A DNA stretch of 14,515 bases from IMG/VR virus record IMGVR_UViG_2541047895_000006; one strand, written 5' to 3'. How positions within the stretch are numbered: position 1 is the first letter of the stretch; each line of letters begins with the position of its first letter. Of this stretch, positions 2,490 through 5,413 are shown piece after piece. The stretch is from a virus. Taxonomy: Duplodnaviria; Heunggongvirae; Uroviricota; Caudoviricetes. The notes below the pieces were generated by a model. The model made no database searches and was not told where the DNA came from. It was given only the letters and a program-made list of their open reading frames with translations. Made by a program: the position numbers and the translations under genes.

Positions 2490-2685
2490 TTCTGATCCTC
2501 TTCAAAAGGCTACCTGTTACTGGTCGATTTAAGTCAACCTTTACCGCTGATTCGTGGAACAGATACTCTCTTCCATCCTTAACCGGAGGAGGGAATATCC
2601 TGCATTTGCGCACCCATCGACGAACTGTTTCAAGGCTTCTTGGGCGTCGCTGGCGTGCGTTCCACTCCTGAAGTGTCAAGTACAT
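2467..2685 (-). CDS. xis: Lambda excisionase, 72 aa
   Basis: MYLTLQEWNARQRRPRSLETVRRWVRKCRIFPPPVKDGREYLFHESAVKVDLNRPVTGSLLKRIRNGKKAKS matches lambda Xis; overlaps the int start. Confidence 0.95.
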   Translation of the reverse strand: MYLTLQEWNARQRRPRSLETVRRWVRKCRIFPPPVKDGREYLFHESAVKVDLNRPVTGSLLKRIRNGKKAKS

Positions 2686-2710
2686 CGCAAAGTCTCCGCA
2701 ATTACACGCA

Positions 2711-2733
2711 AGAAAAAGCCGCCATCAGGCGGC
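2711..2733 (-). terminator. Intrinsic-terminator-like hairpin on the minus strand between the 55-aa ORF and xis
   Basis: Stem GCCGCC (2718-2723) / GGCGGC (2728-2733) with a 4-nt loop; the A-run at 2712-2717 on plus gives a U-run after the hairpin on the minus strand. The loop contains the stop codon of the upstream ORF. Confidence 0.4.
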
Positions 2734-2892
2734 TTGGTGTTCTTTCAGTTCTTCAATTCGAATATTGGTTATGTCTGCATGTGCTATCTGCGCCCATATC
2801 ATCCAGTGGTCATAGCAGTCATTGATGTTCTCTGCTTCGATAACTCTGTTGAATGGTTCTCCATTCCATTCACCTGTGACTCGGAAGTGCAT
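2725..2892 (-). CDS. Small hypothetical protein (55 aa) upstream of xis in the pL operon
   Basis: Minus-strand ORF ATG at 2892 to TGA at 2725, translating MHFRVTGEWNGEPFNRVIEAENINDCYDHWMIWAQIAHADITNIREELKEHQAA. Below the 60-aa cutoff of the supplied track. Position corresponds to the small ORF lambda carries between xis and ea8.5. Confidence 0.55.
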   Translation of the reverse strand: MHFRVTGEWNGEPFNRVIEAENINDCYDHWMIWAQIAHADITNIRIEELKEHQAA

Positions 2893-3134
2893 TTATCATC
2901 TCCATAAAACAAAACCCGCCGTAGCGAGTTCAGATAAAAGAAATCCTCGTCAGTGCGAGGATGCTGTTCATTGCTGCTATACACTTTTTTGCTCTCAACG
3001 TAAGCGGTAGCTCATTCTGTTGGGTTGGTGCAGTTGCTTTTAGGAAATGCTATTTACCCCTTAAACGTCGGCTGAAAGAGCTAAAATCCATGCAAAAAAT
3101 TTACGCAATTTTGTGTATTATTGTGCAGTAAGTA

Positions 3135-3563
3135 ATGAGCTATTTTCTGCGCAAAAAATGGATGGTAAATTTGTCCGGGGCAGGAAAAATTTTATGGGCG
3201 CTAAACATGAAAAAAGATTCGTATCCTTATTTGATTTGCATGACAGTTTCAGGCCTGATCTTTATTTTCCTTTTCTTCTGGTGGCGGGCAGATATTTACA
3301 GGGTCACGTTTCTTAATCAGAGTATATCCCACTATTACATTCTGTTTAGCATGGGAATAGCTTTTCTGTTATCTCTGTTTTGGGTTAAGAAGGGGATAGT
3401 AAAACAAAGCGGCTGGAAGAGTCTGTCAGCATACCTTAAGGTTTATGCAGGGATGTGCATATTTGCTGGATTTTTTCTGATTATACCCCTTACAACACTA
3501 ACTTATTTTTTTGCCTGGAGAGACATCGTCTTATGTTGCACCGTATCGGTATACTTCCGGTAG
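3135..3563 (+). CDS. Hypothetical small membrane protein (about 119-142 aa, about 3 predicted TM helices); start uncertain (ATG 3135 or ATG 3206)
   Basis: Longest ORF in the AT-rich insert, with hydrophobic stretches YLICMTVSGLIFIFLFFWW, YYILFSMGIAFLLSLFWV and CIFAGFFLIIPLTTLTYFFAW. No convincing Shine-Dalgarno at either start; AT-rich DNA readily produces spurious hydrophobic ORFs, hence moderate-to-low confidence. Confidence 0.4.
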   Translation: MSYFLRKKWMVNLSGAGKILWALNMKKDSYPYLICMTVSGLIFIFLFFWWRADIYRVTFLNQSISHYYILFSMGIAFLLSLFWVKKGIVKQSGWKSLSAYLKVYAGMCIFAGFFLIIPLTTLTYFFAWRDIVLCCTVSVYFR

Positions 3564-3588
3564 TTCAAAAAGTTGTTCTGGAGCTGAG

Positions 3589-3738
3589 GTGGATGACCCC
3601 GATCTACATGAGAATATTCGCATTTGCTATCCGTATGGCAATTATGAGTACGATAATATTATCTATGTTGAAAAGAAAATTAATACATTAGGTGCGGTAG
3701 TAACATATGCACAGACCGCGCGTGATGATACTGAATGA
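3589..3738 (+). CDS. Hypothetical small ORF downstream of the membrane-protein ORF (49 aa from GTG 3589; alternative 32-aa hydrophobic peptide ATG 3593-3691 in another frame)
   Basis: GGAG at 3580-3583 sits 5 nt before GTG 3589 and 9 nt before ATG 3593. The 3593 frame encodes MTPIYMRIFAFAIRMAIMSTIILSMLKRKLIH. The frame cannot be resolved by eye. Confidence 0.2.
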   Translation: MDDPDLHENIRICYPYGNYEYDNIIYVEKKINTLGAVVTYAQTARDDTE

Positions 3739-3772
3739 GATAGTATATAGCGGGCAAGTTTTAGTTAATTTA

Positions 3773-3796
3773 TCGAGGTAATATAATTTACCTCGA
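3773..3796. terminator. Perfect 9-bp stem-loop downstream of the plus-strand cargo ORFs (possible terminator)
   Basis: TCGAGGTAA (3773-3781), loop TATAAT, TTACCTCGA (3788-3796). Followed on plus by ctcgtttatt, a weak U-run. Confidence 0.35.
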
Positions 3797-3948
3797 CTCG
3801 TTTATTCTGGTATTAATATTTCGCTTTACGATCGATTTTTATCTGATGATATCATGCGGTTTTCATATACTGACTTACTGTCTTTTCTCCGTTAGCGATT
3901 TTCTCCTGCTCAGCGATGATTTTATCTTTGGCTTCTAGTTAATTTCGC

Positions 3949-5344
<1,396 letters not shown>

Positions 5345-5413
5345 AGCACCTGTGTTGTTCTGAGGTGAGCATATCACCTCTGTTCAGGTGGCCAAATTCA
5401 GTGTGCCACTACA

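Follow-up and report, generated by a model that had tools for sequence, protein, structure and literature searches.

A frameshifted gene in a lambdoid prophage belongs to a family of predicted three-helix inner-membrane proteins shared by phage 434 and the P2 hotspot, with a possible role in phage exclusion

Morons, in the sense of Hendrix and colleagues, include bor and lom of phage lambda and gp15 of HK97; the last of these encodes a membrane protein and blocks the entry of DNA. SieA of phage P22 is a prophage-expressed inner-membrane protein of 162 to 164 amino acids (aa) with three predicted helices, and it blocks DNA delivery through interference with the ejection-protein conduit (PMC10883804). 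In P2-like phages, anti-phage systems cluster in a hotspot at the cos-proximal locus, the site of old and tin in P2 itself, and one of the entries cataloged there, system #4 of Table S5B, is a single protein with no Pfam domain that is described as “3 TM” (three transmembrane segments) and has 470 occurrences (Rousset et al. 2022, PMC9122126). Here we describe a gene of the same family in positions 2893 to 3948 of a 14,515-nucleotide (nt) stretch of viral DNA (Caudoviricetes; IMG/VR record IMGVR_UViG_2541047895_000006), which is referred to as the window. A preliminary description of this segment had noted an AT-rich insert with plus-strand open reading frames (ORFs), including a small membrane protein, and had read it as a moron. 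Our comparisons with other prophages indicate that the insert is composite and that its core (3070 to 3845) is a mobile single-gene accessory cassette composed of an upstream region, one ORF, and a hairpin. The ORF corresponds to a phage 434 gene for a 176-aa protein and is split in the window by a single extra base. The best overall explanation, to which we assign a probability of about 0.45, is a moron cassette whose inner-membrane protein would be expressed in the lysogen and exclude other phages, and which is broken in this prophage.

The segment is 99.8% identical to phage 434 (OL657226) and is present also in phages 2B8 and mEp332. Over positions 2893 to 3948, the window differs from 434 at two places, by a substitution at 3198 and by an extra T in a T-run. 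Dropping this T joins roughly 100 codons from the start of the hydrophobic ORF with a 75-aa ORF (3511 to 3738) and restores the 434 gene, the product of which is CPT_434_36 (UMO75300.1, “putative membrane protein”), the same protein as WP_000120060.1 and as ECs_0804 of prophage Sp3 in Escherichia coli O157:H7 Sakai. The plus-strand ORF with about three transmembrane segments that had been described at 3135 to 3563 is present and has three hydrophobic segments. It had been listed apart from the overlapping short ORF, but the two are halves of one gene that is intact in 434 and in about 900 E. coli genomes. Three transmembrane helices are encoded by the first part (3207 to 3563), which then leaves the frame and ends at a stop codon; the conserved 74-aa beta-barrel domain of the C terminus is encoded by the second (about 3513 to 3738), in the +1 frame. 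The caution in the preliminary description that gene boundaries were uncertain was justified, as the gene model had to change. From the ATG at 3207, the window product is 118 aa long and consists of the three helices and 17 out-of-frame residues, without any of the conserved domain. Members of the family carry the three helices and a beta-domain with two invariant cysteines in one frame, whereas the window copy is interrupted between them. Judged by its reading frame, the copy in the window belongs to the family as a pseudogene and not as a working gene. It is most probably inactive, because its product loses the entire conserved C-terminal domain, and it would then do nothing in this lysogen. 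Anatomy, family assignment, and pseudogene status, taken together, are held here with high confidence.

A T-run is a typical site of long-read sequencing errors, and if the single-base difference were such an error, the gene would be intact in the real strain. The same extra T is found, however, in two assemblies from different laboratories and countries, E. coli 2015C-4136CT1 from the United States (NZ_CP027550), which is 100% identical to the window over the stretches compared (2600 to 4300 and the insert region), and EC12 from Korea; in both, the Prokaryotic Genome Annotation Pipeline (PGAP) labels the gene “frameshifted.” EC12 and the window prophage share their excisionase, exonuclease, and DUF1317 alleles, as expected if the mutation was inherited in one prophage lineage, yet EC12 lacks an insertion sequence (IS) of the IS3 family that the window carries, so the assemblies are not the same. 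When a 70-nt query over the T-run was compared with complete E. coli genomes, it matched without a gap in only these 2 of 904, and the other 902 fell in the 95 to 99% identity band; among the matches listed, ten others all span 69 nt, one base less. That none of the 902 is gap-free across this stretch speaks against a systematic error at the run. A sequencing error is therefore improbable. Because EC12 shares these alleles yet lacks the IS3-family insertion, the extra T has the look of a genuine mutation, passed on by descent, that arose before the IS element inserted.

The gene is conserved well beyond the lambdoid phages. A search of 5.8 billion proteins returned 74 relatives. The divergent ones (42 to 78% identity; Salmonella, Enterobacter, Cedecea, and Klebsiella) are 169 to 186 aa long, and all of them start at the methionine equivalent to window position 3207, which is M25 of the 200-aa PGAP model. 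The start had been placed at 3135 or 3206, but the conserved start codon is the ATG at 3207. The PGAP start at 3135 was rejected as well: a stop codon closes off its 24-codon extension in the copy of an E. coli P2-like prophage (contig L018), and all divergent homologues lack the extension. A profile search of 1.84 billion cluster representatives gave 61 matches, about 35 of which are full-length proteins of 166 to 202 aa with the same layout, while the shorter ones match one part of it. The profile matches that were looked up come from Enterobacterales (Phytobacter, Hafnia, Proteus, Providencia, and Erwinia) and from one Pseudomonas, and nearly all are named “hypothetical.” The ratio of nonsynonymous to synonymous substitution rates (dN/dS) is 0.08 to 0.10 between the 434 allele and the P2-borne alleles and 0.08 to 0.17 across the pairs in which synonymous sites are not near saturation. 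The gene is under purifying selection. In E. coli, at least 80% of the segment from 2893 to 3948 is matched in 905 of 5,426 complete genomes (about 17%), and the strains that carry it in lambdoid prophages include O157:H7, O55:H7, O145:H28, and O104:H4; it is also found in Shigella sonnei.

The preliminary description had allowed that the ORF might not be conserved and that the segment might be a degraded remnant of ea22 or ea8.5, in which case the whole of it would be nonfunctional debris with spurious, AT-driven hydrophobic ORFs. Parts of the segment fit this account: the last 100 bases are probably an Ead/Ea22-like remnant, a 56-aa ORF near the left end is without support, and the gene in the window is itself broken. 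The central ORF does not fit it: homologues in different genera keep one architecture at identities as low as 42%, with a dN/dS of 0.08 to 0.17, which is more than chance would leave; length and architecture are also uniform among about 60 cluster representatives, and the fold is predicted with confidence (see below). Hence, the idea of a degraded ea22 remnant probably holds for the last 100 bases and fails for the rest of the segment; for 3070 to 3845, the sequence conservation has already refuted it, and as an account of the whole segment it is extremely unlikely.

Hydropathy analysis of the restored protein shows three transmembrane segments. The N terminus reads MKK, loop 2 contains five Lys/Arg and no acidic residue, and the C-terminal 74 residues contain 12 Asp/Glu against 6 Lys/Arg. 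Because these charges follow the positive-inside rule, the C-terminal domain is placed in the periplasm; the protein probably has its N terminus and loop 2 in the cytoplasm, three transmembrane helices, and a periplasmic 74-aa C-terminal domain. Invariant residues lie mostly in loop 1 (T58 and L60) and in the C-terminal domain, where they include C147 and C164 (numbering of the 200-aa PGAP model), a pair that probably forms a disulfide. AlphaFold2 predicts three long helices and a five-stranded beta-domain, with a predicted local distance difference test score (pLDDT) of 80.7 over the full length and of 92.4 for the isolated domain, and in this model the 74-aa domain resembles an OB-like beta-barrel. 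Toxin-like peptides had been named among the small membrane proteins often found in such slots; at 176 aa and with a conserved, predicted extracytoplasmic domain, the present protein does not answer to that description.

The only family match is phrog_1416, which covers the C-terminal 88 residues (E = 2e-50). Searches of Pfam, NCBIfam, and PADLOC with the reconstructed protein gave no match, nor did Pfam searches with all 21 aligned members, a profile search of PDB sequences, or the defense models of PADLOC-DB 2.0 at E ≤ 1. The records for 434, RefSeq, Sakai, and phrog_1416 give no function for the gene. In a comparison of the full AlphaFold2 model with BFVD, nothing scored below E = 0.017; among the nonsignificant matches is an NfeD-like viral protein (rank 15, E = 0.21). 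Short NfeD-type proteins likewise have N-terminal transmembrane helices followed by a small five-stranded beta-barrel (OB-fold), but the likeness is superficial, and the present protein matches neither the Pfam NfeD domain nor NfeD structures. P22 SieA resembles it in being the product of a single prophage gene, in size (162 to 164 versus 176 aa), and in its three predicted transmembrane helices. SieA differs in that its soluble segment separates the first helix from the second and in that it has no C-terminal beta-barrel. Homology to SieA was considered and rejected (hhalign probability, 0.2%), and the relation is, as far as the comparison goes, one of analogy and not of membership.

Relatives of the protein also occur in P2-like prophages. 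Those of E. coli, Salmonella (two variants), and Klebsiella michiganensis encode four variants in the interval from portal gene Q to replication gene A, with identities to the 434 protein of 78%, 70%, 58%, and 55%. System #4 of the P2 hotspot aligns with the 434 protein over 168 residues at 52% identity (E = 3e-57) and shares with it the three transmembrane helices and the C-terminal motifs SKSCSGA, DDPDL, and ICYP.G.Y, although it occurs in a different type of phage and in a different slot and is known as a cataloged sequence, outside the table of cloned systems. By sequence, the 434 gene and system #4 belong to the same family. This is the new point of the present analysis; our searches found no earlier link between the 434 gene and the P2 “3 TM” system. 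The gene as such had already been sequenced and annotated, in phage 434 and in many E. coli prophages. A 2026 follow-up study predicted by machine learning that 15 to 32% of the uncharacterized P2 hotspot proteins are antiviral (PMC13586616).

Comparison of the lambdoid and P2-borne copies also delimits the mobile unit. Nucleotide homology between the window and L018 extends over 3070 to 3845 at 76% identity and thereby takes in some 135 nt ahead of the start codon and some 105 nt past the end of the gene, so that the upstream region and the hairpin travel with the ORF. The 110 nt upstream are 79% identical to L018, compared with 59% at the third codon positions of the gene, which points to constraint on the upstream region. 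It contains TTGTGYA direct repeats with 10-bp spacing (about 3111 to 3127) and TTTTCTGCGCAAAAA at 3143 to 3157; two to three TTGTGCA-like repeats and TTTTCTGCGCAAAAA are kept in lambdoid and P2-borne copies alike (window 3100 to 3160; L018 5890 to 5950; contigs L007 and L006). At 3163 to 3171, about 35 nt before the ATG, the sequence TGgTAAATT (TGnTAAATT) is a probable candidate for a sigma-70 extended -10 promoter, and a TAAATT or TAAGTT hexamer stands at the same distance in chromosomal homologues of Klebsiella and Cedecea. The 434 record labels TTGT-N6-TTGT (3111 to 3124) as a CII site. We set this label aside as an explanation of the repeats, which are the same in P2-borne cassettes; P2-like phages are not known to have a CII. 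Inspection of the upstream region by eye for an Ogr-type TGT-N12-ACA site, a CRP site, a LexA box, and a marbox gave no convincing match. The perfect 9-bp hairpin that had been pointed out at 3773 to 3796 is present (-13.5 kcal/mol, z = -2.7, plus strand), and L018 has a weaker hairpin with one compensatory change at the same place.

These features support the reading of the insert as a moron. The block from 3070 to 3845 runs antiparallel to the pL operon, has a deviant composition, and recurs in an unrelated type of phage, at the hotspot between gpQ and gpA of P2-like prophages. The AT-richness that had been reported is indeed strong: the G+C content is 0.35 to 0.43 over 2900 to 3950 and 0.372 for 3070 to 3845, against 0.476 for the whole window. 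It is thus extra DNA of deviant composition in a slot that is filled differently in lambda, where, as had been claimed, ea8.5 and ea22 lie in exactly the same place. With classical lambdoid morons, the cassette shares its composition, a candidate promoter of its own, a hairpin, and a location within a conserved operon in opposite orientation. Its expression from the prophage is a prediction, and bor, lom, and HK97 gp15 show no sequence similarity to the present protein; none of them surfaced in the PHROG scan.

If the moron reading is correct, the cassette would be transcribed in the lysogen from its own promoter. Its orientation opposes the early-left operon, and as pL is repressed in the lysogen, nothing would read through from the other side. 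The protein would insert into the inner membrane with the conserved beta-domain and loop 1 in the periplasm, where they could bind either a component of an incoming phage or a host envelope protein that phages need, and superinfecting phages would thereby be excluded, most simply through interference with DNA entry. An anti-phage role of the intact protein has, in our estimate, a little less than an even chance. Phage exclusion at the level of the envelope, to which the genomic context points, is a tentative proposal, and a specific block of DNA entry, suggested by analogy, is doubtful. More tentative than exclusion as such is the full proposal of a new single-gene, envelope-level anti-phage family, in which an inner-membrane anchor would carry an undescribed, disulfide-bonded, OB-like periplasmic domain that blocks entry of the superinfecting genome, and in which the TTGTGCA-repeat region would tie expression to a host signal.

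Several observations weigh against this explanation. (i) System #4 is not in the list of tested systems, three of the eight newly tested P2 systems protected, and the hotspot also holds nondefense cargo such as partition systems and a cytolethal distending toxin (PMC9122126). (ii) We found no experiments on any family member in the literature and no mention of the family motifs, of ECs0804, or of the WP accession; the family is also missing from PADLOC. (iii) The expression signals are imperfect: a consensus promoter scan omits the TGgTAAATT candidate, which has no good -35 hexamer, the E. coli allele has no obvious Shine-Dalgarno sequence before the ATG, and the U-run of the hairpin (CUCGUUUAUU) is weak. 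(iv) More-distant homologues occupy fixed non-prophage sites in Enterobacter, Klebsiella, Cedecea, Hafnia, Serratia, and Pantoea (on a megaplasmid), and a general envelope function would therefore fit equally well.

The last point is the basis of the main rival explanation, in which the protein would have an envelope function unrelated to phages (tolerance to stress or altered permeability, interaction with a transporter, or immunity to a bacteriocin or secreted toxin that acts on the membrane or in the periplasm) and the prophage copies would act in lysogenic conversion, being kept for the gain in host fitness. The chromosomal homologues, at 35 to 57% identity, favor it. In Enterobacter, all 17 contigs read have the same neighbors, and across genera the neighbors are ptsG, a bgl-type phosphotransferase system (PTS), TolC/HlyD/MFS efflux genes, and an outer-membrane protein gene with PhoPQ, with no defense gene adjacent; the nondefense cargo of the P2 hotspot points in the same direction. 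Yet prophages carry divergent variants in two distinct accessory slots, including the old/tin hotspot with its enrichment for anti-phage genes, no partner gene or operon is conserved that would indicate a pathway, and the protein matches no characterized immunity or transporter-accessory family. We therefore regard a phage-unrelated function as rather unlikely.

In a second rival explanation, the protein would be an abortive-infection effector or membrane toxin that stays silent or harmless until infection and then permeabilizes or depolarizes the inner membrane, killing the cell before phage release. Suicide effectors are a frequent interpretation of membrane proteins encoded in the hotspots of prophages and satellites (PMC9122126), and the present gene, which encodes one small membrane protein and has a control region to itself, would suit such a role. 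However, the invariant residues lie mostly in the extracytoplasmic beta-domain and loop 1 and not in the helices, which suggests binding over pore formation; there is no sensor or partner gene; and the species-wide chromosomal copies speak against a toxic product. The truncated three-helix allele is, moreover, evidently tolerated in two strains from different countries. An abortive-infection effector is accordingly an improbable account, and exclusion at the envelope is retained as the preferred explanation.

Some genomic contexts of the homologues deserve mention in their own right. In Serratia marcescens, the homologue is directly downstream of ptsG (contig L029, 4333 to 6510); the Serratia “plasmid” record pE28_003 also carries holB, tmk, and mltG and resembles a fragment of the chromosome. 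In Klebsiella, a homologue is divergent from a bgl-type PTS EIIBCA gene (L015, 3882 to 6543). PtsG and ManYZ are inner-membrane factors for the DNA entry of HK97 and lambda. A link to glucose-family PTS transporters was considered and not adopted, as the adjacency is seen in Serratia and Klebsiella but not in six other chromosomal or megaplasmid contexts. The chromosomal homologue of Hafnia alvei is followed by genes for a 134-aa protein with a TolA C-terminal domain, an outer-membrane beta-barrel protein, and PhoPQ (L032, 5001 to 5975). In the P2-like hotspot of K. michiganensis, the homologue adjoins genes for a 790-aa AAA_16 protein and a 279-aa protein with no domain (L025, 2281 to 6537), and these two may constitute a separate candidate defense system.

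By its gene order, the window is a lambdoid prophage at the lambda attachment site. It starts in ybhC and continues on the minus strand with int, xis, and a 55-aa ORF; next come the insert, a TraR/DksA-type zinc-finger gene, and the IS3-family element, to the right of which follow orf63 and orf60a homologues and then exo and bet; lambda has int, xis, the 55-aa ORF, ea8.5, ea22, orf61, orf63, orf60a, and exo. The 434 gene (CPT_434_36; ECs_0804 in Sakai) is flanked by orf55 and the zinc-finger gene, as is the window copy, and has the same orientation. Phage 434 differs in its intact gene with T6 and in carrying ORF114, and of the two only the window prophage has the IS3-family insertion. The window prophage thus shares the cassette module with 434 but, from these differences, is not itself phage 434. 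The features of the region are collected in Table 1.

Table 1. Features in and next to the insert (window coordinates)
Feature	Position	Strand	Basis or remark
Frameshifted gene (pseudogene) for a 176-aa predicted inner-membrane protein	3207-3738	+	Single extra T relative to the phage 434 gene
Frameshift site, run T7 (T6 in intact alleles)	3506-3512	+	Pairwise alignment with 434
Conserved noncoding upstream region	3070-3206	+	Aligns with E. coli and Salmonella P2-like prophage copies
Perfect 9-bp hairpin, candidate cassette terminator	3773-3796	+	35 nt past the stop codon; within the block common to the window and L018
55-aa ORF (lambda lambdap35, 434 ORF55), left neighbor	2725-2892	-	phrog_676, E = 1.7e-39; conserved in lambdoid phages
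TraR/DksA-type zinc-finger gene, right neighbor	3949-4179	-	PF01258, E = 8.5e-9; phrog_54
Two tandem intrinsic-terminator-like hairpins, each followed by a U-run	2943-2962 and 2912-2931	-	Both found by consensus scan
56-aa ORF, “putative membrane protein” in the 434 record	2961-3131	+	Annotated in OL657226 only
Probable 5'-truncated Ead/Ea22-like remnant, translation LEAKDKIIAEQEKIANGEKTVSQYMKTA up to a stop codon, no start codon	3846-3945	-	Alignment with the L018 downstream region

The IS3-family element (4167 to 5413, about 1.25 kilobases), which looks IS911-like, sits after codon 2 of the zinc-finger gene and replaces its N terminus; its transposase genes orfA and orfB are on the minus strand, and it is missing from the otherwise near-identical prophages of EC12 and CB9615. 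The ORF114 gene, which lies between xis and orf55 in 434, is missing from the window prophage (window 2686 to 2724). Also between xis and orf55, at 2716 to 2735, a GC-rich 8-bp hairpin with T-runs on both sides resembles a bidirectional terminator, and its position is equivalent to that of the t'I-type terminator annotated in 434 records. An Rfam scan of 2600 to 4300 found no RNA family, its single match being at chance level. The preliminary description had also stated that the segment has no minus-strand ORFs; none of at least 60 aa lies wholly inside it, but some of 25 to 34 aa are present, and a 61-aa minus-strand ORF (2799 to 2984) begins just within its left edge.

Both ends of the segment lie outside the core. 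The leftmost 100 bases are a widely shared lambdoid terminator region outside the insert proper: positions 2893 to 2988 are common to more than 200 records of lambdoid, Stx, and P22-like phages at about 88 to 90% identity. The pair of tandem hairpins found there (fold of 2912 to 2962, -22.7 kcal/mol, z = -3.05) would stop leftward transcripts, in the direction of pL, and the right-hand hairpin matches t-L4 of phage 434 (M60848 annotation, equivalent to window 2936 to 2966). The adjoining 56-aa ORF has no PGAP call and no match in Pfam, PHROG, PADLOC, or NCBIfam, and homology with the P2-borne cassette starts only at 3070. As further support from any source is missing, we rejected it as a gene; it is probably not one.

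At the other end, the minus strand downstream of the cassette in L018 (6622 to 7004) carries a frameshifted Ead_Ea22 gene in two pieces (PF13935, E = 4e-14 and 1e-6), a gene of the lambdoid exo-xis region. The peptide encoded at the right end of the window segment is identical to the Ead/Ea22-like peptide of L018 at 11 of 16 residues (pairwise E = 4e-5). Because the 28-aa fragment by itself matches neither Pfam nor lambda Ea22, we call it only a probable remnant of an Ead/Ea22-like gene. It accompanies the cassette in 910 E. coli genomes. In L018 the cassette thus has Ea22-like DNA as its neighbor although it sits in a P2-like hotspot, an arrangement that suggests a transfer of the L018 copy from a lambdoid phage into P2.

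The family described here is the fourth most frequent cassette in the P2 defense hotspot, and lambdoid prophages bring it into about 17% of the complete E. coli genomes. The link between the 434 gene and the P2 system provides two independent lines of context toward inter-phage competition, and it makes the intact allele a good and cheap candidate for an exclusion test. If exclusion is its function, the family would represent a new envelope-level mechanism, with 434 lysogens as a ready model and the window allele as a natural null, and both phage 434, a classic of molecular genetics, and prophage Sp3/CP-933K of enterohemorrhagic E. coli would carry an unrecognized exclusion gene. If it is not, the family would be an example of nondefensive hotspot cargo.

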